64,000 bases of DNA from a bacterium (GCA_021814165.1 JAKAIX010000002.1:136501-200500); one strand, 5' to 3'. Shown: positions 1-62,261, counted from the stretch's first letter. Numbers and translations are program-made. The notes: generated by a model not told the origin, from the sequence alone.

Positions 1-1584
1 CTCGAAGCTTCTCATGGCATCCTGTAGTTGCCTTCTTATCTCGTCCGTCGCTTCTCTGGGTCGCCCGCTACTGACGGCCCTCTGCCAGTCGTTGTTTAAT
101 TTCAATATCTCGGTATTGACTCCCACGGTTTTCTCAAAGTCGTTATAAGCAGACGCCTGTCCAAAACGTTGGAAAAGCGTCTTTGTTTGGGGGTCTTGTA
201 TGTAGGAAGCGGCGCCATTTGCGACGTGGTCCAGCTCCTTGTTCTTGGTAAGCCGCGCAAGTGCCGCCACCCTTTCCTCGTCTTTCATAGTTGCAACACG
301 GAGCGCCAGCTGCTTATCGGATAAGTGAGCCTGTTTTTTTGTCGCTTCTTTTACGAGATTGTCGCCCTGCACCGCCCCCATGTTGCTTAGGACGTTTCCA
401 ACCCTGCCGAGAACGCCTCCTCTTGCCTGCAGCCGTTCGGTAAACTTCCTCCCGCCTTCTTCTCGGAGCGGCGAAGTCACTTGTTTATATGCCTTCTTTC
501 CCACCCACGTCGCGGACGCCTTCCCCGCTTTCTCACCAAGTTTGAGGGCGCCTGCCGCTCCCGCAATACCCATCTTCTGCGCCGCGATCACGCCCCCTAT
601 CAAGAATCCGCAAAGCGCCACCATCTGCATGCCCTGAGTTATAACCGTGCTGAGCCCCCCGAACACCCCTCCCCCCGACGGCGGTTGGGCCGTGTCCTTA
701 AGGAAACTCAGAGAGAGTATCGAAAGGTAAATAAAGAAGAGCATCGCGGGCTGGAAAAATACCCACTGGAAAAATGTATTCCACCACTTTGAGAAGAGAT
801 GTTTTAATGCGGGAAACGCCCAGAAAAGCCACACGATGGGCGCGATAATAAGGAGAAACGAGAGCACAATGAATCGTATCATTAGCATGCCCGCAAGGAG
901 GAACATCACCATGGAAGCGATAAGGGAGAACACGGTGATAAAAGTGAGATTTCCGATGCTTATAAGTATCGCGGCGGAAAATCCGGTCCATGCCCCCCCC
1001 TGCTCCGAGGGATCGGGCGGCGGCGGGTTGTCCGGAGGAAGGAATAATCGCTGCGGACCGAAAGCCGCCGCGAGCGATTGCGTGAACTCGGAGTAGTTGC
1101 CGCCCATTTTATCGAGAAACGATTGGGAGAGCGTGCCGGCGAAATTAATAAACACTCCGCCGATCGTCAGGCTGAAATTTACGATTATCGCGGCGCCGAT
1201 GAGCATAGGAAGAAGCTTCTTCGCGCCATAGCTCTGAATCCGGAGTATGGTCGCGAACGCAATGATAATAATAAGAAGCACGAAGCCGAGGTTCGCTACG
1301 TCTCTGGAAATTTTCCACCCCACCATAACGAGAGCATTCGATGTCGAAAGGATCTGACTGTTGAAATTCATCGCGATGCCCACGAAGAAGTTCGCGATCA
1401 TGAAGAGCACGCCGAAGATAAAGGAAAATACGTACGCGATCCCTCTCAAAACCGAGGTAAGGATCATGGTCGGAGAAAAGATGTCCCAAATTGCGGCGTG
1501 AGCGAAATGCGGCACGACGAAGAAAAGCACCGCGAGAATTCCGGCGAAGAGCATCATTTTCTTTTTCGTTAGCAAGTTCATATG
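1..1584 (-). CDS. Partial (C-terminus off the window edge) polytopic membrane protein, at least 527 aa. It has about 8 predicted TM helices, a Pro-rich linker (PPDNPPPPDP), and an Ala/Gly/Lys-rich hydrophilic tail. Possibly VirB6/TrbL-like.
   Basis: I translated the reverse strand from the ATG at 1584-1582 by hand (MNLLTKKKMMLFAGILAVLFFVVPHFAHAAIWDIF...). The frame stays open to position 1 and is absent from the ORF track only because it is truncated. Its architecture matches TrbL/VirB6-type proteins. It is first in a minus-strand run with two secreted or anchored proteins. Confidence 0.5.
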
Positions 1585-1605: not shown

Positions 1606-3267
1606 TTATGGATAGACCTGGGAGCCCCCAACGCACGCGTTTAGTTTTCCTTGGGCGTCCTTCAGGGTTAGCTGAATTGCGGCAAGAAGTTGTGTGGCAT
1701 CTGACTTAATACTCGACGCCGAAGAGAGCGCAGCGGTTATGAGATCTCTAAACGATTGATCGATTGAAGGCATCTGCCCGCTACTAGCCTGGTTTTTTAA
1801 GAGCGAAGCGCGATCCTGGAGCTTCTGAATGCTGTCGGCTTGGTTGTTTAGGCTGTCTTGTATGGTCTTGATTTGCCCGGGATAGGTTGAGGTTGCGAGA
1901 ACAAGAGTGCTCGATGCCCAACTTATGTCAGTTGAAGAGGCGTTTGATCCCAGACAACTCAGGAGTGACTTGGTTGTAATATAAAGATTTCGCGTCGAAC
2001 TCGCCGCGGTTAAGAGCACATTTGAGGCGTCGTTCAGTGCTGTTTGAGCATCATCTAATGGCCTAAAAATTGCCGCAATTTGACTATTAGTCATGTTTTT
2101 TTGTGCTGTATCTGAAGAGGATGCTGCGTTTGTTATATCGGGGGTTCGCGTGATGCCCGAGTTTTGAGTGTTATCGGGTGAAAGTTTTGCGAGGCCGGTT
2201 TTTACTCCATTTATCCCCTCTTTCACCAATCGATTAAATGCCGCGTCGAGCACTGCGGCGAGCACATTTGTTATGTCGTCCGAGTTGACAATGAAGTCGA
2301 TGTTCGAGCCAAATGATTTGTTCAACCCCTCCGCGATGGTTCGTCCTGGCGTTGTGGTTTTTTTCTCCGTGCACCGGTATTCGAAATTAGGATCATCGCT
2401 CGTCGGTTGTGGCGCGGATCCGTCAGTTTTTACCACAAGAGGAAGACTGCCAGCATAAGTGGAGGCACCAAACTGGAAACCGGGTGTCAAAATATTGCCT
2501 CCAGATCCCTTATTATTCGCGGGCTGACTTGTCTTTACACTGTACATTGTCCAAGTGATACACGCCTCGCTGTTAAATCCGAGATTGATGTTTTGTTTCA
2601 AAACCGACTCCTGCTGTTTTTGCGCCACCGATTGTTCAAGCGCTTGCTGCGTGAGAATCTCCAGTCCGTACTGGTTATTTTGAGGTTTCAAGAGATCGGA
2701 ATAACCGAGCCATCCGCCGGTTTTGAAATCCCTTTTGAATGATTCCAAATTACTCACCACCTGAGAGAGCGTACAACTCACCTGCTTTTTTGTGGTATCC
2801 GGTTGAGCGAGATAGAAATTAACATTGAAGGGTATTCCACTGCATAATTGCCCCGCTCCTACTTGTCGGATTACCTCTCCGGCGGCCTCGTCTGCCGCCT
2901 GTTCAAATACCTTCCCCGGTTTTTGGAGAAAAAGTGGTTTGTCTCCGTTTTGTATCCACTGCACCGTTTCTCTCGTTATCTCATCAAGAAGCTGTTTTTT
3001 GAGTGTTGCGAGAAGTACTTTAAAAACCTTGTCTTGAATAAATCGCCACGCCTCCTCAAGAAAGCCAGCGGTGGTCGCTGTTGTTTGAGCGGCACCGGCA
3101 GCGGCTACGGCAGCGGCTACGGTCGGATCTATAACGAGTTGCGGAGTGACGTTGCTAAGAAGCCAAAACTGGGCTTTTGCTTTTGGCATAAGGAGGGCGG
3201 GATCTGAAATAAGAAAGATACTCAACACAAGAAATAATGAGACCACTCTGATTTTTTGTTGCTTCAT
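1606..3267 (-). CDS. Secreted protein of 553 aa with an N-terminal signal peptide; Ser/Thr/Ala/Asn-rich; unknown function.
   Basis: Complete ORF with N-terminus MKQQKIRVVSLFLVLSIFLISDPALLMPKAKAQ (signal-peptide-like). It is in an operon between an anchored protein and the polytopic membrane protein. Confidence 0.55.
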   Translation of the reverse strand: MKQQKIRVVSLFLVLSIFLISDPALLMPKAKAQFWLLSNVTPQLVIDPTVAAAVAAAGAAQTTATTAGFLEEAWRFIQDKVFKVLLATLKKQLLDEITRETVQWIQNGDKPLFLQKPGKVFEQAADEAAGEVIRQVGAGQLCSGIPFNVNFYLAQPDTTKKQVSCTLSQVVSNLESFKRDFKTGGWLGYSDLLKPQNNQYGLEILTQQALEQSVAQKQQESVLKQNINLGFNSEACITWTMYSVKTSQPANNKGSGGNILTPGFQFGASTYAGSLPLVVKTDGSAPQPTSDDPNFEYRCTEKKTTTPGRTIAEGLNKSFGSNIDFIVNSDDITNVLAAVLDAAFNRLVKEGINGVKTGLAKLSPDNTQNSGITRTPDITNAASSSDTAQKNMTNSQIAAIFRPLDDAQTALNDASNVLLTAASSTRNLYITTKSLLSCLGSNASSTDISWASSTLVLATSTYPGQIKTIQDSLNNQADSIQKLQDRASLLKNQASSGQMPSIDQSFRDLITAALSSASSIKSDATQLLAAIQLTLKDAQGKLNACVGGSQVYP

Positions 3268-3284
3268 AGGGATAAAAACAAAGG

Positions 3285-4091
3285 TTATTTCTTGTTTAGT
3301 GTGTTTGCTTGGTTAGAGAGAACGTTCTGGAGCATTATATTTTCTTCAAGTACCGAGCGAACATCGTTTAAGGCGATTGTCGCCTTCAGGGGATCGTTTT
3401 TAAAATCAAGAACGGCAGTGTATACTACTGACTTTTTCGCCCACAAATTCAGGTTCTGGAGATGCCACACCTTCCATTGGGGCGGTGCCTCGAGCGCCAA
3501 AAGGTCATTTACCTGCCCATTTATAATATTGATGTATTTTGCGAGCGGAGCAGAATCACTCTTATTGAAAAATGCGCTTAGAATATCCGTGGTCGACATA
3601 GAGAACGACCCGAAATTTTTCTGTGTGATCGAACCAATGGCGTTTAGATAATTGGTCTGCGCCTGGATCGAACCATCCTTCCCTGTCCTTATGTCTTTTT
3701 CAGAAAACGAGGGAAACGAGAGATCTTGCGATAGCGCCTGCGTAAGAAAATCATCCATTGATCCGGAAGGAGGCATTCTCAGCGTGTCGGTTGTATCGGT
3801 TGGGTTCCCGCTGTTCAGGTTATAGACCGACTCGACATAGTGCTGTGCTAATGTCTGCGTTAAGTTTCTGTCAGCTGCGGTGCTCGTGCCGATTCCCCAG
3901 GAATTGAGGTCCGAAAGCCCTCCCTCATTCTCAACTCCGTACCCGGCTTTTCCTGTGTTGGGATTTTGGACGACCGAGATGAACGGCTTTTCCCCGGACG
4001 ACGGGGAAATAACAAGGAGAAATGCGACAAGAATCCCCGCTCCGAGAATCATAAAAGCGGCAACCCTTCTTTTTTTGAAATATTGTTTCAT
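3285..4091 (-). CDS. N-terminally membrane-anchored extracytoplasmic protein, about 268 aa, unknown function.
   Basis: The ORF track gives 3285..4121. The internal ATG at 4091 (MKQYFKKRRVAAFMILGAGILVAFLLV) is preceded by an AGGGG-like RBS and avoids overlap with rsmA, so I prefer it. One TM helix, then a polar domain. Confidence 0.5.
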   Translation of the reverse strand: MKQYFKKRRVAAFMILGAGILVAFLLVISPSSGEKPFISVVQNPNTGKAGYGVENEGGLSDLNSWGIGTSTAADRNLTQTLAQHYVESVYNLNSGNPTDTTDTLRMPPSGSMDDFLTQALSQDLSFPSFSEKDIRTGKDGSIQAQTNYLNAIGSITQKNFGSFSMSTTDILSAFFNKSDSAPLAKYINIINGQVNDLLALEAPPQWKVWHLQNLNLWAKKSVVYTAVLDFKNDPLKATIALNDVRSVLEENIMLQNVLSNQANTLNKK

Positions 4092-4110
4092 CCCCTTTTT
4101 GTAATTGGAA

Positions 4111-4971
4111 TCACCCATCATAATTGTACAACATTTCTCCTATCTTTTTTATATCCTCGACACATAGGTTATGCGGGCGGTCGTTCGGTTTTACCCCGAT
4201 TTGTTTCAGACGTTCCGCAACACCATCTTTTTCTGCCTTGTTACACTTCTTTAACGATCGAAAGGCGAGTGTTATGTTGTTTACAATCGTTTTTCTGGGC
4301 TGCCCAAAGAGCGCATGCAGCGTGTCAAAATACCCCTGTTGTTTGCTCGGCGTCTCAACGGGTTGGTGTGTTTCAAGAAGAATGACGGCGGAATCTACTT
4401 TCGGTTTCGGAGCAAAATCATTCTTTCCGACGATCATCACCACCTTCGGTTTCGCCCATAATTGAATGCTTGCCGCAAGGAGATTCATATGAGGAGGCGT
4501 TGCCGTCGCGCGCAGCGCAACCTCTTTTTGGATCATGAATACTGCTCGCTTCGGGAGCATGGACAACCCGCTTATCGTACGGAAGAGGAATCCGGTGAGG
4601 TAGTAGGGAATGTTGCCTACCAGTTTGTAATTTCCAATTTCTAGTTTCCGATTTCTAATTAGTTCCGGAAGAACTTTCAAAACATCCCCATGGATAATTT
4701 CAATTTCGGATAAATTTTCCTTTCGGGGTTCAGAATTTATTTGAAGCTTGTCGTTTGTGATTTGGAATTTTTTTCTTAGAAAATCAACGAGGGCAGGGTC
4801 TTTCTCGATGGCTATGACTCTCACGGGGTAACGTAAAAGCTCCCCCGTGAGTTCGCCGTGCCCGGGACCAATTTCTATAATCACGTCACCGTCCTCCGGC
4901 GCGATGGCGTCGATTATTTTTTTCACCACCGTCTTGTTTTGCAGAAAATGTTGTCCGAGCCTCCTGGTCAT
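4111..4971 (-). CDS. rsmA: 16S rRNA (adenine1518/1519-N6)-dimethyltransferase RsmA/KsgA.
   Basis: N-terminus RLGQHFLQNKTVVKKIIDAIAPEDGDVIIEIGPGHGELT carries the SAM-binding motif, and VGNIPYYLTGFLF matches the KsgA signature. It has a C-terminal helical domain. Confidence 0.85.
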   Translation of the reverse strand: MTRRLGQHFLQNKTVVKKIIDAIAPEDGDVIIEIGPGHGELTGELLRYPVRVIAIEKDPALVDFLRKKFQITNDKLQINSEPRKENLSEIEIIHGDVLKVLPELIRNRKLEIGNYKLVGNIPYYLTGFLFRTISGLSMLPKRAVFMIQKEVALRATATPPHMNLLAASIQLWAKPKVVMIVGKNDFAPKPKVDSAVILLETHQPVETPSKQQGYFDTLHALFGQPRKTIVNNITLAFRSLKKCNKAEKDGVAERLKQIGVKPNDRPHNLCVEDIKKIGEMLYNYDG

Positions 4972-5550: not shown

Positions 5551-6672
5551 GTGAAGTGTTATGCGGTTCTTTTCTTTCCCAGCCTCTTTGCTATACTTAG
5601 TTTCATAAGTACGTTATTTTCCCACGTAAGAACCCTTTTTAAGAGGGGAGCTCCTAAGACGACCAGTTTCTGGTCGGTGCTTTTTGTAGTAATAATGGCC
5701 CTTTTTGGAGGGATTATAAGTGTCGGTGCGAGAGGGATAATCAGCGGTTATGAGGAGGGAAACAACTGGGGTTTTGGTGGGCCTGTTCAGAAACCGGAGA
5801 TGGTTGCCGCGTCAACGGGAGAAAAGAGCTCTTCCGAAGGAACGGGTTCTTCAAACGACGAACGACACACCCTTATCGCGGGAGACACGGCCGTGGTCGC
5901 TTCGTCGGACCCTTTAAGTGATCTTCTCCCCGTAAGCGGAGGGCTTAAAAGATATAAAGTGAAACGCGGCGACACCCTCCAGGGAATCGCCGATCGTTTT
6001 CACGTTTCCCGCGAAACGCTTCTATGGGCGAATCCGGGGGCCTCTTCGGTCCTTACGACGGGACAAACACTCCTGGTACCCCCCGTTTCCGGCGTCGTAT
6101 ACCAGGTTAAGCCGGGCGACACCCTTAAAGAAGTCGGCGGTACGTACGGGGTTGATCTTGAGCTTATAAAAAAATACAACGCGGATTATCAGAACGTACT
6201 AAGCGAGGGCGGAGTACTCATCCTCCCCTATGCGCGCCCGCTCGCTTCAAGCGGTCGCGGAACAACGTCCGCGGATGCCGATCTGCCGAATCTGAAAAAT
6301 TATTTCGCGCTTCCCGCTATCGGATGGAACTGGGGGCAGCTTCATAATTACAATGCGGTAGATATAGCGAATCAATGCGGCACGCCCGTTCATGCCGCGG
6401 CGGAGGGACTCGTGGTGATCGATGAAAATTTCGGGAGCGGCGCGGAAGGATGGAATGACGGATATGGAATCTTTGTTTTGGTCGAACATCCGAACGGAAC
6501 CAAAACTCGCTACGCGCATCTCGCAAAAGCTCTCGTGAAACCCGGCGATTACGTGAATCGCGGAGAAGAACTCGGTCTTATGGGAAACACCGGAAACACG
6601 CACGGACCGACCGGCTGCCACCTGCACTTTGAAGTATATGGAGCGAAGAATCCGTTTGCGGTCACGAAGTAG
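5551..6672 (+). CDS. Membrane-anchored peptidoglycan hydrolase with two LysM domains and a C-terminal M23 (LytM) metallopeptidase domain.
   Basis: The LysM repeats are GDTLQGIADRFHVSRETLLWANP and KPGDTLKEVGGTYGVDLELIKKYN. The M23 motifs are ...HLAKALVKPGDYVNRGEELGLMGNTGNTHGPTGCHLHFEV. Confidence 0.85.
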   Translation: MKCYAVLFFPSLFAILSFISTLFSHVRTLFKRGAPKTTSFWSVLFVVIMALFGGIISVGARGIISGYEEGNNWGFGGPVQKPEMVAASTGEKSSSEGTGSSNDERHTLIAGDTAVVASSDPLSDLLPVSGGLKRYKVKRGDTLQGIADRFHVSRETLLWANPGASSVLTTGQTLLVPPVSGVVYQVKPGDTLKEVGGTYGVDLELIKKYNADYQNVLSEGGVLILPYARPLASSGRGTTSADADLPNLKNYFALPAIGWNWGQLHNYNAVDIANQCGTPVHAAAEGLVVIDENFGSGAEGWNDGYGIFVLVEHPNGTKTRYAHLAKALVKPGDYVNRGEELGLMGNTGNTHGPTGCHLHFEVYGAKNPFAVTK

Positions 6673-13352: not shown

Positions 13353-14240
13353 ATGAGCGAGATCGAAAAATATTTGAAGGAATACCTCGATTATCTCGAG
13401 GTGGAAAAAAACCGCTCCCCGAAAACGCGCGAGAACTACGAGCGCTATCTCTCTCGGTTTGTGGCGACAATAAAAATTAAAACGCTCGGTGATGTCACCG
13501 AGGAGTCGATACGGGAATTCAGGGTGCGGCTCTCGCATGAGAATTTGAAGAAGATCAGCCAGAGTTATTATGTGATCGCGATCAGGAACTTTCTGAAATA
13601 TCTCGTGAAGCGGGGCGTTAAGGCGCTTCCGCCGGACAGAATCGAGCTTCCGAAGGTTTCGCGCCGCGATATCGAGACGCTTGAGTACGGGGAGCTTGAG
13701 CGGCTCGTCGCCGCGCCGAAGATATCAACATTCCGCGGACTCCGCGATAAGGCGATTTTAGAAACGCTTTTTTCGACGGGGCTTCGTCTTTCCGAGCTTT
13801 GCGCGCTCCCCCGCTATATCGATCTCGATCGCGGTGAGATCACCGTGCGCGGAAAGGGAGATAAACTTCGAATCGTATTTCTTTCGGACGCCGCGAAAAA
13901 GACTATTAAGGCATATCTCGAAAAACGGCCCGACACCAACGAAGCGCTCTTCGTAAGTTTGAGTAAAAAGGGGAAAGTGCTCGGACGGGTAACGCCGAGG
14001 TCCGTCGAGCGGCTCGTTTCATACTATGCGCGCGCCGCGGGGATTCCGAAAAGAGTGCATCCCCACCAGCTCCGCCACTCGTTTGCCACCGATCTTCTTA
14101 TAAACGGCGCCGATATCCGGTCGGTGCAGGCGCTTCTGGGACACGCGAACATCTCGACGACCCAGATCTACACCCATCTTACAAACAAAGAGCTCCGCGA
14201 GGTTCATAGAGCGTTCCACGGAAGGAGGAGGAAAAACTAG
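13353..14240 (+). CDS. Tyrosine recombinase, XerC/XerD-like.
   Basis: N-terminal SAM-like domain, then the catalytic C-terminus HQLRHSFATDLLINGADIRSVQALLGHANISTTQIYTHL carrying the R..H-x-x-R..Y motifs. Its codon usage is host-like. Confidence 0.85.
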   Translation: MSEIEKYLKEYLDYLEVEKNRSPKTRENYERYLSRFVATIKIKTLGDVTEESIREFRVRLSHENLKKISQSYYVIAIRNFLKYLVKRGVKALPPDRIELPKVSRRDIETLEYGELERLVAAPKISTFRGLRDKAILETLFSTGLRLSELCALPRYIDLDRGEITVRGKGDKLRIVFLSDAAKKTIKAYLEKRPDTNEALFVSLSKKGKVLGRVTPRSVERLVSYYARAAGIPKRVHPHQLRHSFATDLLINGADIRSVQALLGHANISTTQIYTHLTNKELREVHRAFHGRRRKN

Positions 14241-14296
14241 GTTCGGTATTGGAGGCTGAGCCTCCGCGAGTAGGAAGCTCAGCCTCCCTGTTTTAA

Positions 14297-14381
14297 TATG
14301 GTGCCCCCGAGAGGATTTGAACCTCTAACTCTTTCGAGACAGCGTCCTAAGCGCTGCGCGTATTCCAGTTCCGCCACGGGG
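14297..14381 (-). tRNA. tRNA-Leu, anticodon UAG, type II with a long variable arm; CCA is encoded.
   Basis: The reverse complement folds as acceptor GCCCCCG/CGGGGGC, anticodon stem CAGCG/CGCTG with loop CTTAGGA, T-arm AGAGG-TTCAAAT-CCTCT, discriminator A, then CCA. Confidence 0.85.
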
Positions 14382-14427
14382 GCTCTTTTTTCCTCATTCT
14401 ATGCGCTTTTTCGCCCCAAGACGAGGT

Positions 14428-14456
14428 TTGACAAAAAGCTGTTTTAGTGATAGAAT
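14428..14456 (+). promoter_or_regulatory. Near-consensus sigma70-type promoter (TTGACA-N17-TAGAAT) driving the downstream low-GC cassette.
   Basis: TTGACA at 14428-14433, a 17-nt spacer, and TAGAAT at 14451-14456. It lies about 95 nt upstream of the first cassette ATG, which has an AAGGTAGGAG RBS. Confidence 0.5.
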
Positions 14457-14553
14457 ACAGCCAAGTAAACTTAACAGCTTAATATTGGTTGCAACGCGGA
14501 ATGGCTGAAATGAAATTAAATTAATTGAATAAATAACTAAGGTAGGAGCCTTT

Positions 14554-15153
14554 ATGAAGGTATTAAAGAAAAAGATTTTTCCCGTAACCAGCCTAGCAAT
14601 AGACTGGGTCCTTACGGAGGAAAATCAGGTTGGCGATTTCTGGGAAATCAAGGGCATTGCTCTTGTAAAAGACCCCAGGAGAAAACCCGCCAAAGACATA
14701 AGTATCAAATTCTTCCTTGACGGGAAAGAATACGAATCTGCAGAAAAAACGGATAATGATGGCCGTGCTGTGAAAACTTTTTCCGGCTTGTCATCAGGAA
14801 GTCATTCGTTTGAAGTATTGATTGTAGGGACCGCAGTAAGAAAGGTCTGCTCAAAGGGTTTTAAGGGACAATCAAAAAGTCCCGCGAAGCTTCTTTGGAA
14901 GCAGTCTGGAAAAAGTGGAAATTATGTAATTTTCTTCCAGGTTCTCACCGCAGATAATAAACCGGCTAAGAATGCCGTTATCAAGATATTGGATAAAACA
15001 ATCGAAGAAAGTTTTTCCAAAAATCTTGATCCTACCGATAGTAACGGAACCGTATCCATGAAAGTGGACTTCTCCGAAGGAGAAAAAAGAAGAGACATCA
15101 TCGCTATGGTGATAGGTTCCGAAATTAGAGAAAAAATTCATTTATTCAATTGA
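14554..15153 (+). CDS. Hypothetical 199-aa protein, cassette gene A, with two beta-rich repeats and no recognisable domain.
   Basis: Complete ORF with a strong RBS. Its codons are A/T-ending, unlike its neighbours. Internal repeats are ...KFFLDGKEYESAEKTDNDGRAVKTFSGLSSGSHSFEV... and ...KILDKTIEESFSKNLDPTDSNGTVSMKVDFSEGE... Confidence 0.65.
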   Translation: MKVLKKKIFPVTSLAIDWVLTEENQVGDFWEIKGIALVKDPRRKPAKDISIKFFLDGKEYESAEKTDNDGRAVKTFSGLSSGSHSFEVLIVGTAVRKVCSKGFKGQSKSPAKLLWKQSGKSGNYVIFFQVLTADNKPAKNAVIKILDKTIEESFSKNLDPTDSNGTVSMKVDFSEGEKRRDIIAMVIGSEIREKIHLFN

Positions 15154-15165
15154 AGGAGATAAAAA

Positions 15166-15669
15166 ATGAGCTGGAATTGGAAAGAAATAGCCAAAGAAGC
15201 AGGCATCTCCCTTGGGTTTGACGTCCTGTTTCACGAGATACTTTCAAAGAAGGTACCGGAGTTCGCTGAAAAGGCTCTTCGCCGTATAACCGAGCACGAC
15301 CGCAACGGATTGTTCATATTTATTGCCGACATGAGCGATGAAACTGCAAGAGAAAATCTTATTCGTCGCCATCGCGAGTGCAAAGGGAAGGCTGGTAAAG
15401 AGGATCGTTTTGTGAACCTCTTAACGAGACTCTACTTAACGGTAAAAGATGATCCATCGAAACACTGGATATTTACATATCTCGGTCATTTATCAGATGA
15501 CGAGTTCGATCAGGCGCTGTACTTTTTCGAAAATGATGTAATAAAGCAGTGGTTCGATAAGGTCAGCGATTTCGGCGCTGATACCGCCGGATTCGTTAAA
15601 CAAACAATTAAGAAGATTGACGAGGGAGGGAAAAACTTCTTTGATCAATTCTTGAGAGAGGAGGCATAA
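15166..15669 (+). CDS. Hypothetical 167-aa cytoplasmic protein, cassette gene B.
   Basis: RBS GAAGGAGAT. No TM helix and no known motif. It ends 1 nt before gene C. Confidence 0.65.
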   Translation: MSWNWKEIAKEAGISLGFDVLFHEILSKKVPEFAEKALRRITEHDRNGLFIFIADMSDETARENLIRRHRECKGKAGKEDRFVNLLTRLYLTVKDDPSKHWIFTYLGHLSDDEFDQALYFFENDVIKQWFDKVSDFGADTAGFVKQTIKKIDEGGKNFFDQFLREEA

Positions 15670-15670
15670 A

Positions 15671-16783
15671 ATGATCGCAGGATTTTTTCATTGGCTAGGA
15701 AGACTCTTTCGCAGAGTCCTTGTATATACCATTATTGCAACGCAAGCTATAACTCCCCTTATTATTGATTTATGGGAGATAGGAAGCAGGATTGTGAGAG
15801 TAGCTCTATTCATTCTTCTCGCATTCCCTTTCCTGATTATGATCGTAGCATTTAGTGGCGTTCCCTGGTTAGTTGCTACAGTAACGATGCTTGTTCTTGT
15901 CGCGATGCTGTGCGCAGGGATTGTATTTATAAACCCCCTGCTTATCGGTATCGTAGCAATGAACTCTCATATTCGCAGCGGACTAAGAAGAATAGCTGAA
16001 ATATTGGCGATTGAATTATTGGTAGGCGTGTATTTTACGCTTATGTCTTCATTTTTAAGCGTAAAAGTGAAGATAATAATTCTTCTCCTTTTATTCACAA
16101 TACTTTTCTTATCACTCGCAGGACAGAAATTTGCCAAGGCGATGAGAACAGTTTTAGTTCTTGTGCTCATTTGTGTTTCGGCGCTATCCGTTGTTTCTTA
16201 TGTTATGCCGAGAATATTTGAAGGATTGCCTGATGGTTTATCAGACGTCGGTATTTCCTACAAACAGACAGATTCTGAGAAAGAACTCGTTTCTCAGGGC
16301 GACTGGTTACAGGGAAAGTGGGACGAAGAAACCCAATTGAAGTTGGAAGGAGTACGATCAGCTTACGAAAAAGGGAAGATAAGTCTGGACTCAGCTCTCG
16401 TGTTGACGAAGCTGATTCAGAGACGATCAGAGAGCTTCCGGAAGGAACTCTCCGAGAAATCTTCTTCCGATCCTTCTATGACAACAACTCCTGCTACCCC
16501 GGCTTCGTCTGGTTCATTCCAATCGTTTAATGGGATAAGAAGAAATTACTCTCTAAATGACAAAGAATGGACGAGAATAGAGATTCCTTTCGGAAAGTGC
16601 TACTGGGGAATAACCGGTACGGTGGTAATTAAGGGGTATAAAAAGGTTGGGAACAACCTTGTGCCCGACGATGTCACCTACACGGTAAAGCCCTCTGACG
16701 ATCTTGATCTTGGGAATAAATATCGCGCCCTCGACGTGAAAGCGGAAAAAGGGTTCTGTGATTTTACTCTGAAGGCTGGCTGA
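15671..16783 (+). CDS. Hypothetical 370-aa membrane protein, cassette gene C: about 6 N-terminal TM helices plus a roughly 170-aa soluble C-terminal domain.
   Basis: It is translationally coupled to gene B (RBS GAGAGGAGGCATAAA). The N-terminal 200 aa are hydrophobic and the C-terminal domain is polar with a PT-rich linker. Confidence 0.65.
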   Translation: MIAGFFHWLGRLFRRVLVYTIIATQAITPLIIDLWEIGSRIVRVALFILLAFPFLIMIVAFSGVPWLVATVTMLVLVAMLCAGIVFINPLLIGIVAMNSHIRSGLRRIAEILAIELLVGVYFTLMSSFLSVKVKIIILLLLFTILFLSLAGQKFAKAMRTVLVLVLICVSALSVVSYVMPRIFEGLPDGLSDVGISYKQTDSEKELVSQGDWLQGKWDEETQLKLEGVRSAYEKGKISLDSALVLTKLIQRRSESFRKELSEKSSSDPSMTTTPATPASSGSFQSFNGIRRNYSLNDKEWTRIEIPFGKCYWGITGTVVIKGYKKVGNNLVPDDVTYTVKPSDDLDLGNKYRALDVKAEKGFCDFTLKAG

Positions 16784-16860: not shown

Positions 16861-16932
16861 ATACACATGACGACAACTAATATAGGGAGGCCGGACTTCC
16901 TGACGGAGGTCCGGCCTCCAGAGCCCCCATGA

Positions 16933-18486
16933 CTACAGTCCGTACGTGTAAGGGATAGCGATTAGAAAGCCCCACACAGAAAGAATTCCTATTACGCCAT
17001 ACGCGAGCATCCGCGTGCGTTTTGTTTTATTCTCGAGCCAGCGCGTAATAAGCGTTGCAAGGAGCGCAATTGCAAGAAGAAGTGCGGGAAAGTAGTGATA
17101 TAAAAACGTCGCGCGTGTTACAAAAGTGAAAAACGGAAGGAGCGCGAACACGTACCCAAAAAGAAGAATCGCGATCGGATTTTCCTTTTCATCATACGTC
17201 GCGCGCCGCGCGATTCGCTTAATATATTTAAAAAGCGTCCCAAGGACAACGAACGTACTCGCAACCCATATAAATATGTTTCCTATGAGCATAATATCGC
17301 CGCTACTCGTAAAACGCATTGGTTTCATCATAAAGGGCCAGAGATACCATGGGCTCATCATCGGGTTCGTGCCTCCCACGGTGTAGCCGGCGACCCCAAG
17401 AAGAAGCTGATACAACGATGCCTTCATAATCGAAGGATTCGCGGTTATGTTCGGAATATTAAAGAGCGACCCCATAACGGAAAGTTGTTCGCTGGGAGTA
17501 AAAAGCAAACCATTAATGCCGACGAAAAGAACAAGAAACACGGCTATTGCAAAGCCGAAGAAGCGGAGCATATCGCGATGCTGTCGTTCTCGCGTGAGAA
17601 TATTTTTTAGAACTAATGCGACGACGATCGGCCCCGCAAACACGACTGCGGTGAGTTTTATGCTTACGGCGAGGCCGAAGAAGATCGCAGATAGTAGTAA
17701 ATTGTGCGGCCAATACCACCGAGAAAATGTGCGCTCCGGGGCGCCTGCCTGCGCAGGCAGGCTTGGCAACGTCTTACCCACTTTTTCTCCCGCACCAATC
17801 CCTTGCCGCACGCCGGCATTTTTTTTGAAGAAAAAGTAGAGCGCGAGGAAACCTAATGAGAGATATATCCCATCCATAAGAATAAGGCGTGTATCGAGAA
17901 GAAGCGCGTTCTCGAGCGTGACGAAGAAAGCAGTAAGAAGCGCGGCGCTGTCACCCGCGAGCTCCCGGACAAAAAGGAACACGGAAAAAATAAGGAGGAG
18001 CCCGAAGAGCGCGCTCACCATCCTCTCCATTACATAAGGGAAGCGTTCATACGGCTTGTCAATTCCTTTTGTAGTGAACGATGTCCCATCGGGTGTTTTT
18101 TCATTTACTACATATGTAGCCTCTGTAAGATCGTTTTTGTCGTAGAAAAAAAGAGGGACGGAATAAAGGAATCTCCCGAGGGGAGGATGAATATCGAAAT
18201 AAGGAACATGAAGTGCGTTATCCGCGGCATATGTTGCGAAATACGCCTCATCGAAAACGGGGTGGCTGGGCGTACCAATACGCACGAGGTGCAACGCAGC
18301 GCTTAGGAGAAGGATGAGAGAGAGGATAAGAAACGGATGACGGACAAAACAAGGAGACCCGGCTTCCCCTGCCTGCGCAGGCAGGTCGCGGAGGCCGGGT
18401 TTCCCCGACGACAATATATGGAAGCCCGGCTTCCTCGCGGAGGCCGGGCTTCCTATGTTACTTTCCCTACTTTCCCTGGAGAACAT
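16933..18486 (-). CDS. GT39/GT83-family (PMT/ArnT-like) integral-membrane glycosyltransferase. Its N-terminal cytoplasmic tail is encoded by repeat elements.
   Basis: The first-loop motif is VFDEAYFATYA...HPPLGR, the DE-motif typical of PMT/ArnT. It has more than 10 TM helices. The first roughly 45 codons overlap copies of the GC-rich hairpin repeat and palindrome (GKPGLRDLPAQAGEAGSP). The real start may be a downstream in-frame TTG. Confidence 0.7.
   Translation of the reverse strand: MFSRESRESNIGSPASARKPGFHILSSGKPGLRDLPAQAGEAGSPCFVRHPFLILSLILLLSAALHLVRIGTPSHPVFDEAYFATYAADNALHVPYFDIHPPLGRFLYSVPLFFYDKNDLTEATYVVNEKTPDGTSFTTKGIDKPYERFPYVMERMVSALFGLLLIFSVFLFVRELAGDSAALLTAFFVTLENALLLDTRLILMDGIYLSLGFLALYFFFKKNAGVRQGIGAGEKVGKTLPSLPAQAGAPERTFSRWYWPHNLLLSAIFFGLAVSIKLTAVVFAGPIVVALVLKNILTRERQHRDMLRFFGFAIAVFLVLFVGINGLLFTPSEQLSVMGSLFNIPNITANPSIMKASLYQLLLGVAGYTVGGTNPMMSPWYLWPFMMKPMRFTSSGDIMLIGNIFIWVASTFVVLGTLFKYIKRIARRATYDEKENPIAILLFGYVFALLPFFTFVTRATFLYHYFPALLLAIALLATLITRWLENKTKRTRMLAYGVIGILSVWGFLIAIPYTYGL
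18355..18453. repeat. Composite of two GC-rich hairpin repeat units, one with the palindrome CCTGCCTGCGCAGGCAGG nested in its loop.
   Basis: gacccggcttcc-CCTGCCTGCGCAGGCAGG-tcgc-ggaggccgggtttcc, then gaagcccggcttcc-tcgc-ggaggccgggcttcc. Related copies lie at 14251-14289, 16885-16919, 18793-18897, 38995-39036, 43507-43525, 48032-48065, 54350-54386, 54932-54966, 62206-62261 and 63758-63776. The palindrome alone is at 17744-17761 and 50194-50211. Confidence 0.8.
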
Positions 18487-18760
18487 TGTACGTGAGGGGG
18501 TAGATTGCCGTTGCGAGGAGTGCTACCGCCGCGGCAATACAGGCGTAAAGCACCATTCTTTTTGCCTTCGTCACTCTTTCCCGGTCGCCGCCCGCAGTCA
18601 GGAAAAGAATGGCGGCCCAGATAAGCGCTCCTACCGCGAGTATCCAGAACGTGGTGTAAAGGAAGTTCACTATCCTATATACCGAGCTTTCAACTTGGGT
18701 GAGCGAAGTAAGCGAGGATTGTTGCGCATGCGCGACGAGAATTAATGGAATCAGTTTCAT
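18467..18760 (-). CDS. VirB2/TrbC-like pilin-family small protein, paralog 1: signal peptide plus two TM helices.
   Basis: 97 aa with a signal peptide, then TM1-LTAGGDRERVTKAKRMV-TM2. Its size and topology match T4SS pilins, and it shares a loop motif with three neighbours. Confidence 0.5.
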   Translation of the reverse strand: MKLIPLILVAHAQQSSLTSLTQVESSVYRIVNFLYTTFWILAVGALIWAAILFLTAGGDRERVTKAKRMVLYACIAAAVALLATAIYPLTYNVLQGK

Positions 18761-18792
18761 GATTTTATTGTACTACATGGCTTCTAAAATTA

Positions 18793-18897
18793 GGAGGCCG
18801 GGTCTCTGACCGAGTTTTCTCGCGGACAAAGTACTAGCAACTAGCCCGACCTCCATATATTAAGAAAGCCCGGCTTCCTCGCGGAGGCCGGGCTTCC
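18793..18897. repeat. GC-rich hairpin repeats in the spacer between pilin-like genes 1 and 2.
   Basis: ggaggccgggtctc...gcccgacctcc, plus gaagcccggcttcctcgcggaggccgggcttcc, the same unit as at 18421-18453. Confidence 0.75.
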
Positions 18898-18917
18898 ACT
18901 TTAAAAAACAAAAGAGC

Positions 18918-19292
18918 TTATGAGAGCGTTCCGCTCAAGGCGCTCTTCACAATCGTTTGTAATCCGGTTGAAAGAAGCGCAATCGCTGCGGCGATAATAG
19001 CGTAGATAACCCTGTTTTTTGCCTCCTTTATCTTCTCTTCGTTTCCTGCGCCGGTAAGATAAAGAACTGCCGCCCAGATAAGGAAGAGAACAGTCAAAAC
19101 CCAGAAGATGACAATCACCCAGTTTACGATAGTCGCCAAACTTGACGTCGCCCCCGACAAAGAGGAGACGGGCGCCTGGTTCTGAACGGTACCGCTAGGA
19201 CCGACAGGGCCCGTTTGCGCCAACGCTGCGAGAGGCGAGAGCATACTCACTGCGAGTGCTGTTGCGGCGATTGCTTGTAAAGTTTTTTTCAT
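18918..19292 (-). CDS. VirB2/TrbC-like pilin-family small protein, paralog 2.
   Basis: The ORF track extends to 19523. I prefer the ATG at 19292 (MKKTLQAIAATALAVSM...), which has an AAGGAAA RBS and leaves a signal peptide plus two TM helices with loop LTGAGNEEKIKEAKNRV. Confidence 0.5.
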   Translation of the reverse strand: MKKTLQAIAATALAVSMLSPLAALAQTGPVGPSGTVQNQAPVSSLSGATSSLATIVNWVIVIFWVLTVLFLIWAAVLYLTGAGNEEKIKEAKNRVIYAIIAAAIALLSTGLQTIVKSALSGTLS

Positions 19293-19324
19293 GTGTTTCC
19301 TTGTTGTTGCTCGACCTTTTGGAG

Positions 19325-19723
19325 CTACTGGACGTTCAGCACGTCTCTGATGATCGAAACCATGCCCCAACCTATCACGATTATAGCATACCCGATTGCG
19401 GTGTAAAGAATTGTCTTCTTTCCCGTTGCAAAACGTTCCGGATTCCCTCCCGCGAAAATCATCTGGAACGCTCCGATAAGCATCATGCCGACCGCGATGG
19501 GAGTTGCGATTGTAATGAGCCAATCGACGATATTTTTCAGAAGATCTTCAAAAGTCGAAGCGCCGAGCGGATTGGTTAGGGGAGCGGTAGGCTGGATGCA
19601 GTTGGTGGTTATGGTCGCGTCACACACGGTCGTAATCTCTGCTTGAGAAACGTTAGGAGAAAATAAAAAGATTCCCAGGCCAAACAACAAGATGAGCACG
19701 AATAGCGAAAAAAACCTTCTCAT
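19325..19723 (-). CDS. VirB2/TrbC-like pilin-family small protein, paralog 3.
   Basis: Signal peptide MRRFFSLFVLILLFGLGIFLFS, a Cys/Thr-rich segment, two TM helices, and loop FAGGNPERFATGKKTIL. Confidence 0.5.
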   Translation of the reverse strand: MRRFFSLFVLILLFGLGIFLFSPNVSQAEITTVCDATITTNCIQPTAPLTNPLGASTFEDLLKNIVDWLITIATPIAVGMMLIGAFQMIFAGGNPERFATGKKTILYTAIGYAIIVIGWGMVSIIRDVLNVQ

Positions 19724-19727
19724 ATTC

Positions 19728-20144
19728 TTATGTTATATTGTAGCATTGAATATCGGCCCACGGAAAGTCAACCTTGCCGGTAATAAGGTGAAGCACGGTA
19801 TTGATGATGAGCCATCCCGCGAGCACGATCACAAGACCTATCACGGCGCTCGTAATGATTCCCTTCCCCTTTCGTACTCGTTCTTCCGACCCGCCCGACA
19901 CCATAAGCATAATCGCTCCGTAGATGGTCATACCAACCGCAAGGATGATCGCGACCTCGGTCATTGTATTGATGATATTAGCCGCCACCTTGACGCCGTC
20001 GCAGAGCGAACACCCCGCAGCGGATTTGTTGCATCCCCCTCCCGACGTTCCTTTCCAGATGTCGATAAGGGCTGCGGAAGAAACGCCGAATGTCATAAAA
20101 AATAGGATCGGAGCGAGGACAAAAGATCTGACTTGCTTTTTCAT
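19728..20144 (-). CDS. VirB2/TrbC-like pilin-family small protein, paralog 4.
   Basis: I placed the start at MKKQVRSFVLAPILFF, immediately after the stop of the upstream gene (TAAcATG coupling). It has two TM helices and loop VSGGSEERVRKGKGII. The ORF track start at 20201 would overlap the upstream gene. Confidence 0.5.
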   Translation of the reverse strand: MKKQVRSFVLAPILFFMTFGVSSAALIDIWKGTSGGGCNKSAAGCSLCDGVKVAANIINTMTEVAIILAVGMTIYGAIMLMVSGGSEERVRKGKGIITSAVIGLVIVLAGWLIINTVLHLITGKVDFPWADIQCYNIT

Positions 20145-20145
20145 G

Positions 20146-21453
20146 TTAGTAATTTCGCTGAATGATTTGATTGATGGCATTTTGCGCTGCCACAAGCGCA
20201 TCTAACGGCCTTTCTTTGTCCGACACGACTGCGCGGACCATCTGCGAGAATACCCTTCTCGCGGCATTTTTGTCCCGTTCGTCCCACGATCGCGCGATCA
20301 ATGCCTGCCGGGCGAATACGCTGAGCGTCGGATCGTTTTGATATTGATAAAGAAGCGAATTTAATGCCGGAGGCTTCCCTGTTTGCGCCGGGTAACTGTT
20401 GGCAATAACGGCGTTTGTCGTCATTTGGAGGATAAAATCCCACGCAATCGTCGGATATTTGGTTTGCCGTGAGACAACATACCCCCAGTAATCGGGAAGC
20501 GCGATCGGCGTCACGGCATTTTTCGGCTGGGGCACCGGCGCGATCTCGAAATTCAGATATGCATTCCTTGCCTTGAGTTCTGGAATGGAAGAGGCATAGT
20601 CGAAAATCATGGTAACTTTTCCCTGACCGAATGCATCTCTTGCGTTCTGCATCGAATCGTTCCATGTGTAGGCCCTGGAGTTCGGATCGGCGAACTGCGT
20701 GTAGAACGTGAGCGCCTGAAGCCCGAGTTCTCCCGAAAACGAAGGCGCTCCGCGTTCCCCGATCTTGGATCCGTTTTGGAGCATGAGGAGCGAGAGGAGA
20801 TCCGAGCCGGTAGGAATAGTGTCGTCGGTTCCCCCGATGGCCGCTCCCGCCTGCGTAATCGCGCCTTTTGCATCTTTTGTTACGAGTTTCGGCACCGTAT
20901 TCAAGAAATCTTCCCAGCTCTGCCATGAATTAGGGAGCGGAACCCCCGCACGATCGAAGAGATCTCTGTTATAGATAAGCGCGAGCGTATCGATCGAGAG
21001 TGGCAGTCCGTATATGTTGTTTTGTTGATAGAAATCCTGCGTGACGACTTGTGGGAAAAGTTGTTTCAGTTGGAGCAAAGAAAGGGATGTCTGCGGCACA
21101 GGCATGATCTTGTTAATCTGTCTCGGTACGTCGGTGTTCCGTATCATGAAAATATCGGGGCCGGTCCCCGCCGCGAGCGCGTCAAGCAACGCCGCGTCGT
21201 AATCGGAAGGATTTGAAAATCCGCGGTACGTGATTTTTACATTCGGGTAGATGGTCGCGAAGTTTTGGAGTGCAGCCGAATAAGTTACCTCATTGTCGTA
21301 CACGCCCCACATCGTAAGCGTCGCCTTTGTCTGGTGCGGATCGTTCGTCGTGGTACGGAGCCCGGGGATAACGCCCAATAGTACGAGTACGATCGCAATC
21401 ACGACCGCACCGCCGATAAGGAGAACAACTTTTTGAGAATGAGTTAATGACAT
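20146..21453 (-). CDS. ABC-transporter extracellular solute-binding protein (family 1, sugar/oligosaccharide-type), N-terminally anchored.
   Basis: An N-terminal TM/signal anchor, then an SBP_bac_1-like sequence (...MWGVYDNEVTYSAALQNFATIYPNVKITYRG...). The overlapping ORF 20141..20926 is an alternative frame of this gene. Confidence 0.7.
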   Translation of the reverse strand: MSLTHSQKVVLLIGGAVVIAIVLVLLGVIPGLRTTTNDPHQTKATLTMWGVYDNEVTYSAALQNFATIYPNVKITYRGFSNPSDYDAALLDALAAGTGPDIFMIRNTDVPRQINKIMPVPQTSLSLLQLKQLFPQVVTQDFYQQNNIYGLPLSIDTLALIYNRDLFDRAGVPLPNSWQSWEDFLNTVPKLVTKDAKGAITQAGAAIGGTDDTIPTGSDLLSLLMLQNGSKIGERGAPSFSGELGLQALTFYTQFADPNSRAYTWNDSMQNARDAFGQGKVTMIFDYASSIPELKARNAYLNFEIAPVPQPKNAVTPIALPDYWGYVVSRQTKYPTIAWDFILQMTTNAVIANSYPAQTGKPPALNSLLYQYQNDPTLSVFARQALIARSWDERDKNAARRVFSQMVRAVVSDKERPLDALVAAQNAINQIIQRNY

Positions 21454-38990: not shown

Positions 38991-39037
38991 AATTATCGAG
39001 GCCGGGCCTCGATAGATTGAAGCCCGGTCTCGGGGTT

Positions 39038-48013: not shown

Positions 48014-48125
48014 TTATCAGATCGTGTGTTTAGAGGCCCGGCTTCATTTGGGAAGCCGGGCCTCCTTATTTTGAATAAAAATAAACAAGCGCCGATCTCA
48101 AAACTCGAGATGGCGCTTGTTGATG

Positions 48126-54043: not shown

Positions 54044-55177
54044 CTATAAGTTTAAATTCGCTTGCGCGGTGATCCTTTTATTCTTTTTTCGAAGATAGGA
54101 GATATATCCCGCGACGCCGATCATAACGCCGTTGTCCGTATTGAAGTCCATTGGAGGCGCGATAAAACCAATCCTCATTTTTTTACTCGTAGCTTCCAAC
54201 TTCTCGCGGAGCGAGGCGTTCGCCGCGACGCCGCCGGAAAGAAAGATCGATCTTGCTTCATATTCTTTTGCCGCACGCGTCGCCTTCGTGACGAGCACAT
54301 CGAGCGCCGCTTCTTGAAATGAAGCAGCGACATCCGCTTTCAATTTCCTGGAGGCTGAGCCTCCTACTCGCGGAGGCTCAGCCTCCTTTCTATCTCGCAG
54401 GTAATAAAGTACAGATGTTTTGAGGCCGGAGTAGCTGAAATCATAACTCTTGTCATGAATCATCGGTCGCGGAAATTCAATCGCATGAGAATTTCCTTGT
54501 TTCGCGAGTTTCTGAATTTCCGGACCGCCGGGATAGGGAAGGTCGAGCATTTTTGCGACCTTATCGAACGCCTCGCCGACCGCGTCGTCTCTTGTTTCCC
54601 CGAGTTTCTTCCACTTCGTGAGTGAATCCATCTTTAGAAGTATAGTGTGCCCCCCGCTTACGATAAGCGCAATTGCTGGAAAAAGTTTTCGTTTTGAAAA
54701 TTGAAAATTGTCCTCCGAAGGAGGATCCGCCTCCGGTGGAAAAATTGAAAATTCAGCTTTTTGCTTCAGTAAAAAGCTGTAGAGATGTCCCTCCAGATGG
54801 TTGACGCCGATAAGTTTGAGTTTCGAGTTTTTCTTCTTTAGATTTTTGTACAGCTCTTTTGCAAAATTGACGCCCGTCCAGAGTGCCGGTTCAAGGCCGG
54901 GACCGACAGTGACGGCGATCGCGTCCAATGCGAGGAGGCCCGGCTTCTTACCGGAGGCCGGGCCTCCAACTAATTCCTCAAGTACGACCGGAAGATTCTT
55001 CAGGTGTTCCCGTTTTGCGAGATTCGGTACCACGCCACCCCACGGACGGTGTACTTCAATTTGAGATGAGATTACGTTCCCCAGAATCTTGAATTGCGGC
55101 GCACTAAGCCCCCCCGTCGCTTCGAGTAATGCGAGAGCTGTTTCGTCACAACTGGTCTCTATGGCTAAGATTCTCAT
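54044..55177 (-). CDS. tsaD: tRNA N6-adenosine threonylcarbamoyltransferase TsaD (Kae1/YgjD).
   Basis: MRILAIETSCDETALALLE, the HLEGH metal site, and ...VSGGVAANASLREKL. It carries three in-frame repeat-derived insertions. Confidence 0.9.
   Translation of the reverse strand: MRILAIETSCDETALALLEATGGLSAPQFKILGNVISSQIEVHRPWGGVVPNLAKREHLKNLPVVLEELVGGPASGKKPGLLALDAIAVTVGPGLEPALWTGVNFAKELYKNLKKKNSKLKLIGVNHLEGHLYSFLLKQKAEFSIFPPEADPPSEDNFQFSKRKLFPAIALIVSGGHTILLKMDSLTKWKKLGETRDDAVGEAFDKVAKMLDLPYPGGPEIQKLAKQGNSHAIEFPRPMIHDKSYDFSYSGLKTSVLYYLRDRKEAEPPRVGGSASRKLKADVAASFQEAALDVLVTKATRAAKEYEARSIFLSGGVAANASLREKLEATSKKMRIGFIAPPMDFNTDNGVMIGVAGYISYLRKKNKRITAQANLNL
54350..54386. repeat. GC-rich hairpin repeat (ggaggctgagcctcc-N8-gaggctcagcctcc) embedded in-frame in tsaD.
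   Basis: It is the reverse complement of the intergenic copy at 14251-14289, and encodes EAEPPRVGGSAS inside TsaD. Confidence 0.75.
54688..54754. repeat. AT-rich direct repeat (gaaaattgaaaatt, two copies) flanking a small GC hairpin, in-frame inside tsaD.
   Basis: ttttgaaaattgaaaattg-tCCTCCGAAGGAGGatccgCCTCCGGtgg-aaaaattgaaaattcagc. It encodes EFSIFPPEADPPSEDNFQFSK on the minus strand. Confidence 0.7.
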
Positions 55178-62205: not shown

Positions 62206-62261
62206 GGTCTGAGGCCCGGCCTCCGAGACCTGCCTGCGCAGGCAGGGGAAGCCGGGCCTCA
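62206..62261. repeat. Hairpin repeat with the nested palindrome; it doubles as the terminator downstream of the 607-aa surface-protein gene.
   Basis: ggtctgaggcccggcctcc-gaga-CCTGCCTGCGCAGGCAGG-ggaagccgggcctca, followed by TCGGTTTTTATTC. Confidence 0.7.

Follow-up and report, generated by a model that had tools for sequence, protein, structure and literature searches.

Four diverged tandem VirB2-like pilin genes, distant from virB4 and preceded by a solute-binding protein gene, in a Patescibacteria bacterium

The stretch of DNA analysed here (the window; 64,000 nt, GCA_021814165.1 JAKAIX010000002.1:136501-200500) carries on its minus strand, at positions 18467-20144, an array of four small genes, named p4, p3, p2 and p1 in the direction of transcription. 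An earlier note, made from the sequence alone, had described four consecutive minus-strand genes at this place as diverged VirB2/TrbC-like pilin paralogs that share a loop motif. The open reading frames (ORFs) are present at those coordinates, and each of the four loop motifs was recovered verbatim. The genes are as follows, with types A, B and C as described further below:

19728-20144 (minus strand): p4, 138 aa, type A; FPW..QC tail; first array gene in the direction of transcription
19325-19723 (minus strand): p3, 132 aa, type B; cysteine pair and NPLG motif in the exposed N-terminal segment
18918-19292 (minus strand): p2, 124 aa, type C; AAGGAAA Shine-Dalgarno-like site; strong hairpin 3' of the gene
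18467-18760 (minus strand): p1, 97 aa, type C; short leader; loop TAGGDRERVTKAK; last array gene

The gap between p4 and p3 is 4 nt and that between p3 and p2 is 32 nt, while the 157 nt between p2 and p1 are filled by hairpins. Translation of p2 starts at the ATG of MKKT; a 201-aa ORF with a TTG start is an over-extension that overlaps p3. Pairwise identity among the four proteins is 20-44%. When a hidden Markov model (HMM) built from p1-p4 was run against the window's 866 stop-to-stop ORFs, it recovered all four genes at 1e-39 to 2e-56 and no further paralog, the next best match having E = 0.78.

All four proteins score above the gathering threshold of the Pfam family PF18895 (T4SS_pilin, 26.6 bits), with 30.2 bits for p1, 39.2 for p2, 45.1 for p3 and 34.4 for p4. 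Because all four exceed this score, their similarity is far beyond chance, and the observation of four related genes is confirmed; at the family level, the earlier call of type IV secretion system (T4SS) pilins of the VirB2/TrbC kind was right. The outcome for PF04956 (TrbC/VirB2, threshold 27.9 bits), the family that the earlier note had named, was divided. None of the four proteins passes its cut-off, as p3 reaches 26.1 bits (E = 9.8e-6) and p1, p2 and p4 have no match, but in an aligned set of 68 sequences (65 database homologs of p3 together with p4, p2 and p1) PF04956 is matched by 56 at E ≤ 1e-3; PF18895 is matched by all 68. The PF04956 matches support remote homology to TrbC/VirB2, not membership. 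The model for a pilin-like protein of Mycoplasma integrative and conjugative elements (ICEs; NF045849, threshold 40 bits) gives sub-threshold matches for all four proteins, the best being that of p2 (28.9 bits, E = 6.6e-7). Several homologs, from Minisyncoccia or the Patescibacteria group, are named "pilin" by NCBI.

Small size and two transmembrane helices are common to holins and bacteriocin-immunity proteins, and p1-p4 might be generic small membrane proteins of these kinds or type IV pilus (T4P) pilins. This is extremely unlikely for the following reasons. First, none of the four has a PHROG match at E ≤ 0.01 or falls into a holin or bacteriocin-immunity Pfam family. Second, the surroundings are housekeeping genes, with no phage-family protein recognised nearby; the sole Phage_integrase match, at 13353-14240, is a conserved XerC/D-like recombinase. 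Third, no leader contains the class III prepilin site (G|F/M-x-x-x-E), and there is no match to PF07963. Fourth, the proteins pass PF18895, as described above. Identities as holins or other phage lysis proteins and as T4P pilins were both rejected on these grounds.

Hydrophobicity profiles of p1-p4 each show two strongly hydrophobic stretches with a short K/R-rich loop between them, and the consensus of this basic loop across the four proteins is GG-x-x-E-[RK]. The earlier note had assigned a signal peptide to each protein. This holds clearly for p2, p3 and p4, which have leaders ending in AxA-type sites (ALA|Q, SQA|E and SSA|A, respectively), but not for p1, in which the leader is only 12 residues long (MKLIPLILVAHA|QQ) and is non-hydrophobic in some orthologs. 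AlphaFold2 (AF2) models of p3 and p4, with predicted local distance difference test (pLDDT) scores of 80 and 74, respectively, consist of a leader helix, a disordered segment and two further helices (residues 58-89 and 95-129 in p3, 47-82 and 87-122 in p4); within the helix-loop-helix hairpin, pLDDT is ~90. The p4 model was made to probe pairing of N- and C-terminal cysteines, but its termini have a pLDDT of 55-67 only.

In p1, p2 and p3, the segments predicted to be exposed are 31-47% Ser plus Thr. Type A proteins have conserved cysteines at the two exposed ends (Cys38, Cys45, Cys48 and Cys134, based on 26 p4 homologs), together with the FPW..QC tail, which is conserved as well. When p3 orthologs are compared, variation and indels are concentrated in the exposed N-terminal segment (38% identity, 35% gaps), and the helices and loop are 56-68% identical.

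One genome per species was scanned for the p3-type motif, which gave 47 loci; related loci come from metagenome-assembled genomes (MAGs) labelled Jorgensenbacteria, Paceibacterota, Minisyncoccia or Patescibacteria group. Every one of these loci (47/47) holds an array of 2-7 pilin domains, and the order is constant across the 47 species: the p4-type (A), then the p3-type (B), then one to five copies of the p2/p1-type (C). The species span down to ~35-40% p3 identity. The four paralogs form separate ortholog lineages: identity is 40-80% among proteins of one type and 19-30% between types. The p1 and p2 types, at ~42% identity, are the exception to the latter range and thus duplicated more recently. 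For p1, orthologs in loci L002, L004 and L006 are 46-63% identical; for p2, orthologs are 54-71% identical. Type A is found with a Cys-rich C-terminal extension of 130-380 aa and 10-26 cysteines in several lineages (loci L027, L030, L032, L034, L035, L041 and L050). Judged from these comparisons, A, B and C are three ancient subtypes kept in a fixed order, and the pattern fits a long-standing division of labour accompanied by surface drift, not cassette shuffling. The shuffling of pilin copies that the earlier note had implied does not agree with paralogs that are this old and stably inherited.

GC-rich palindromes lie on either side of p1:

18793-18897: two REP-like (repetitive extragenic palindrome-like) GC-rich palindromes, terminator-like, between p2 and p1; fold -60.2 kcal/mol, z = -5.2
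18353-18453: two more copies of the REP-like palindrome, after p1; fold -71.6 kcal/mol, z = -5.2

The GC-rich hairpins that had been noticed between the first two paralogs are therefore real. The repeated unit is ~34 nt long, has the form GGAAGCCCGGCCTCC-N4-GGAAGCCGGGCTTCC and variants of it, and is found mostly at gene ends. The window contains 31 matches to the palindrome pattern, compared with 1.5 expected, at about 10 intergenic sites; the positions are 14274, 16886-16919, 18353-18453, 18793-18897, 38997-39032, 43510, 48032-48065, 54934-54967, 62211-62261 and 63760. The copy at 54934-54967 is in frame inside a tsaD-like gene (54044-55177, minus strand), where it encodes ...GGPASGKKPGL..., and recalls the in-frame palindromic elements of Rickettsia.

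In the earlier note these hairpins were thought to promote recombination or phase variation among the pilin copies. On such an account the array would be a phase- or antigenically variable cassette in which the repeats drive recombination, deletion or switching, and two observations speak for it: near-identical 37-nt copies flank p1 (18417-18453 and 18861-18897, 95% identity), and the number of type C copies varies between one and five from species to species. Nevertheless, we regard this account as largely refuted and very unlikely to be correct. The element is dispersed through the genome, even into a coding frame. It is present in the closest relatives (L002 and L008) only, and L004, L006 and L009-L011 retain the array without it. 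The separate ortholog lineages of the paralogs show no sign of homogenisation, and ten contigs with an identical p3, which were grouped as one place, have mostly the same neighbouring proteins. Given its dispersed copies and its absence from array-bearing relatives, the palindrome is a lineage-specific REP-like or terminator-like element and not a feature specific to the pilin array; as a generic element of this type, it would punctuate transcription.

The earlier note had hinted at an episymbiotic lifestyle, and this agrees with the identity of the organism, a Patescibacterium. The window has the same sequence as contig DAIBYO010000002.1 of GCA_027423885.1, with 0 mismatches in 13,267 nt (locus L055) and 1 mismatch in 20,399 nt. 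DNA beyond the left edge of the window was read from L055 (11687-21550), which was reached via the 553-aa protein listed here:

1-1572 (minus strand): VirB6/TrbL-like polytopic membrane protein, N-terminal 527 of 680 aa; edge of the T4SS cluster
1606-4121 (minus strand): two secreted or membrane proteins of 553 aa and 277-278 aa, between ksgA and the VirB6-like gene

From ksgA onward, the gene order is 277-aa protein, 553-aa protein, VirB6-like protein, 339-aa protein, PrgI/VirB3-like protein (31.7 bits), TrsD/TraC-like protein (209 aa), VirB4, 143-aa protein, 235-aa protein, a 506-aa PF18895 protein and a 408-aa protein. The VirB6/TrbL-like protein scores 24.2 bits against PF04610 (E = 3.3e-5), just under the cut-off of 25.9. 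The 553-aa and 277-aa proteins have no Pfam or NCBIfam match and are likely members of the cluster, judging from their position, which was seen in the gene order of L055, L056 and L057. VirB4 matches P-loop_TraG (101 bits) and NF045971 (379 bits, cut-off 325) and also resembles the VirB4 of Mycoplasma ICEs (NF045975, 292 bits). A T4SS ATPase, on which the earlier note had made its pilin call depend, is thus encoded on the same contig as the array. In the 506-aa protein (L055 18810-20330), an N-terminal PF18895 domain, closest to type A, is followed by a large Cys-rich, extracellular C-terminal part of ~380 aa; here and in the extended type A proteins, the pilin hairpin may anchor a displayed domain, which would make these proteins candidate tip or adhesin subunits. 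In the part of the cluster that was seen (L055 11687-21550), neither a relaxase nor a coupling protein was recognised, and no homologs of VirB5, VirB7, VirB9 or VirB10 were recognised in the cluster. The chromosome that carries the array thus encodes the whole core of a monoderm-type T4SS, together with a fifth protein that has a pilin domain. The NF045849 matches and the likeness to Mycoplasma ICE VirB4 hint that the pilins may have come with an MPF-FATA-type machine (MPF, mating-pair formation) and not by co-option from diderms, a question of origin left open in PMC12102498.

The array lies ~17 kb from the VirB6-like gene (~17th coding sequence, CDS, from p1) and ~21-23 kb from VirB4 (~21st CDS), and the secretion genes as a group are ~17-25 kb distant. 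VirB4 is therefore beyond the 20 CDS within which published arrays are called "VirB4-associated"; this limit defines association and is not a requirement for belonging to the family (PMC12102498). ORFs with a Walker A motif near the 47 arrays were tried as VirB4 candidates and turned out to be FtsH, FtsK, RecG and ComM-like proteins. Next to the T4SS cluster and ksgA is a gene for a LysM and Peptidase_M23 protein (5551-6672, plus strand). This protein is a candidate for a functional counterpart of VirB1 (cell-wall remodelling), and the question of such a counterpart in Patescibacteria has been discussed (PMC12102498).

Nearer to the array, the following features were identified:

20146-21453 (minus strand): membrane-anchored protein with the SBP_bac_1 fold (SBP, solute-binding protein), PF01547 92.9 bits; upstream of p4
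19380-19407 (minus strand): putative sigma-70-like promoter (TTTACA-16-TATAAT, with TG) within the 3' end of the p3 gene, ~88 nt upstream of p2
16933-18486 (minus strand): GT39 protein O-mannosyltransferase (PMT), PF02366 65.5 bits and PF16192 83.5 bits; downstream of the array

The TAA stop of the SBP gene (20146-20148) is 1 nt from the ATG of p4 (20142-20144), and this spacing places the two genes in the same operon. The earlier note had the last paralog coupled to the SBP gene; the tight spacing to p4 is correct, but p4 is the first paralog to be transcribed and the SBP gene lies upstream of it. The arrangement is conserved: an SBP-fold gene is directly upstream of the array in 35/36 testable related species, gyrA is upstream of the SBP gene in 34/34, and the distance from SBP stop to pilin start is typically 1-10 nt in related loci (L008-L054). 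The SBP-fold protein has weak similarity to GanS and MalE. No genes for an ATP-binding cassette (ABC) permease or ATPase adjoin the SBP gene, whose neighbours are gyrA and p4; the search for them covered this neighbourhood only. The putative promoter in p3 could be a coding by-product, since it sits in the codons of the most conserved p3 peptide, LYTAIGYAII, and it is not relied on here.

A GT39 PMT is found within 3 kb downstream of the array in 14/31 testable related species. In the window, the PMT domain begins at residue 57 of the ORF and the first ~50 codons (about 18340-18486) are translated hairpin repeats, which probably puts the real start codon 3' of these repeats. O-glycosylation of p1-p3 by this enzyme is plausible because of the Ser and Thr content of their exposed segments. 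In the searchable literature, no paper was found in which these pilins are connected with an SBP or a PMT, and an operon of gyrA, SBP, pilins and (PMT) with a fixed A/B/C order was not found described. Adjoining the PMT gene is a divergent conserved block (13353-16783) comprising the XerC/D-like recombinase, a tRNA-Leu, a 199-aa Big_1/MG4-like protein, a 167-aa protein and a 370-aa family-less multi-pass membrane protein; the block recurs in L002, L004 and L005, and individual genes of it recur elsewhere.

The proteins p1-p4 are VirB2-like pilin-family (PF18895) proteins of a Patescibacteria (Candidate Phyla Radiation, CPR) bacterium, and we consider it probable that they serve its T4SS. By the precedent of VirB2 and TraA, the proteins would be exported by the Sec pathway and their leaders cut at the AxA-type sites. 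According to the positive-inside rule, both ends of the mature protein would be outside and the K/R-rich loop inside; the C-terminus would face outward, as would the variable N-terminal segment, which is rich in Ser/Thr or contains Cys. A monoderm-type T4SS would then extract the pilins and polymerise them, forming a conduit or a structure like a pilus where the cell touches its host. More speculatively, the type C copies, of which there are one to five per species, could be the bulk subunits, and types A and B specialised ones (minor, tip or base); the GT39 mannosyltransferase may attach O-glycans to exposed segments that are rich in Ser and Thr, the conserved type A cysteines may staple the two exposed ends together, and the SBP-fold protein may play a functional part with the pilins.

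Several points weigh against this assignment to the T4SS. Pilus formation by p1-p4 is inferred, as are the major and minor roles, the glycosylation and the disulfides; no pilus made of these proteins has been seen so far in any Patescibacterium. Monoderm T4SSs are normally without pili, although a T4SS pilus in Patescibacteria has been called a possibility (PMC12857230). The p1 protein has no convincing signal peptide. A profile search of PDB sequences retrieved no pilin; structure searches are uninformative here because the fold is a plain helical hairpin. The array does not adjoin virB4 in this genome, a search of ±10 kb around the orthologous arrays of the 47 species found no VirB4, and the invariant partner of the array is an SBP-fold gene, not a T4SS gene.

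The last of these points, together with the constant gyrA-SBP linkage, the tight spacing of start and stop codons and the absence of ABC permease and ATPase genes next to the SBP gene, also favours the main rival explanation, in which the hairpin proteins and the SBP-fold protein (with or without the PMT) form a T4SS-independent envelope module, a membrane complex such as a scaffold or anchor for ligand capture, for whose present role pilin ancestry is irrelevant. We judge this to be unlikely. Each of the four genes is a genuine VirB2-like family member, the T4SS cluster of the same genome holds a PF18895 protein closest to type A, and in Saccharibacteria the array is part of the T4SS locus, both being essential (PMC10633639).

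The assignment of p1-p4 to the T4SS can be combined with the operon context in a bolder form, which we put forward as a doubtful conjecture. In this form, the gyrA-adjacent operon of SBP, A, B, C and GT39 genes would be a module for an O-glycosylated, heteropolymeric monoderm T4SS filament, with a disulfide-stapled, pseudo-cyclic type A subunit that in some lineages carries a Cys-rich display domain of 130-380 aa. The SBP-fold protein would capture ligands or nutrients, and the filament would act as a conduit for uptake from host to epibiont instead of a device for secretion or conjugation.

Few systems have been shown to be required by a Patescibacterium for its epibiotic life, and the T4SS with its pilin array is one of them (S. 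epibionticum). In a Jorgensenbacteria/Paceibacterota-like group, the pilins are encoded in an operon of their own, which is deeply conserved and has three fixed subtypes, an SBP-fold partner and often a PMT. The locus is no new kind of system, but for any member of the group that comes into culture it offers concrete leads, open to testing, on what the subunits do, on glycosylation and on a possible function in uptake.

Diverged tandem pilin arrays in Patescibacteria have already been published, and the array described here matches that description exactly. A survey by Quinonero-Coronel et al. (2025) reported 441 arrays of 2-11 genes in 383 Patescibacteria assemblies; identity averaged 25% and reached 54% at most (PMC12102498). 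A series of predicted pilins lies in the T4SS locus of Ca. Southlakia epibionticum ML1, where array and T4SS are essential (PMC10633639, PMC12857230), and the "Sec-secreted array" of TM7x is a related pilin array (PMC12102498, PMC10633639, PMC12857230). Our array is like these in Pfam family, phylum, tandem copies (four here compared with 2-11) and divergence (20-44% here). The published layout of the Patescibacteria T4SS (PMC12102498) is matched as well: the cluster is near ksgA, TrsD adjoins VirB4, no relaxase was recognised and the machine is MPF-FATA-like. In contrast to the published arrays, the one in the window is outside the T4SS locus, in its own operon of gyrA, SBP, pilins and (PMT), and has a fixed A/B/C order. 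Published arrays are most abundant in Microgenomatia and Saccharimonadia (PMC12102498), whereas the relatives found here are Jorgensenbacteria, Paceibacterota and Minisyncoccia. What may be new is modest: an array apart from virB4, the conserved operon, the fixed subtypes and a Cys-rich, sometimes extended type A.

The P-type TrbC/VirB2 proteins of diderms (PF04956; the Agrobacterium T-pilin and RP4 TrbC) share with p1-p4 the leader, the two helices and the short basic loop. They differ in that p1-p4 do not reach the PF04956 cut-off, the host, a monoderm, has a machine of MPF-FATA-like type, VirB5, VirB7, VirB9 and VirB10 were not recognised in its cluster, and type A has four conserved cysteines at its exposed ends. 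There is no evidence that p1-p4 undergo the head-to-tail cyclisation of P-type pilins; no search for a TraF-like peptidase gene was made. The NF045849 protein of Mycoplasma ICEs (the Mbov_0395 family) is likewise small and pilin-like and belongs to an MPF-FATA-type T4SS of a monoderm, but p1-p4, which are below its 40-bit cut-off, are not members of that family. The virB2 paralogs of Bartonella, Anaplasma and Rickettsiales resemble the array in being tandem and diverged and in belonging to a host-dependent bacterium. Variation of virB2 in those bacteria is linked to immune evasion in animals. Their multiple copies have been cited as an analogy for Patescibacteria arrays (PMC12102498). In the present array, by contrast, the paralog types are conserved as orthologs in 47 species, which argues for a division of labour instead of antigenic variation.

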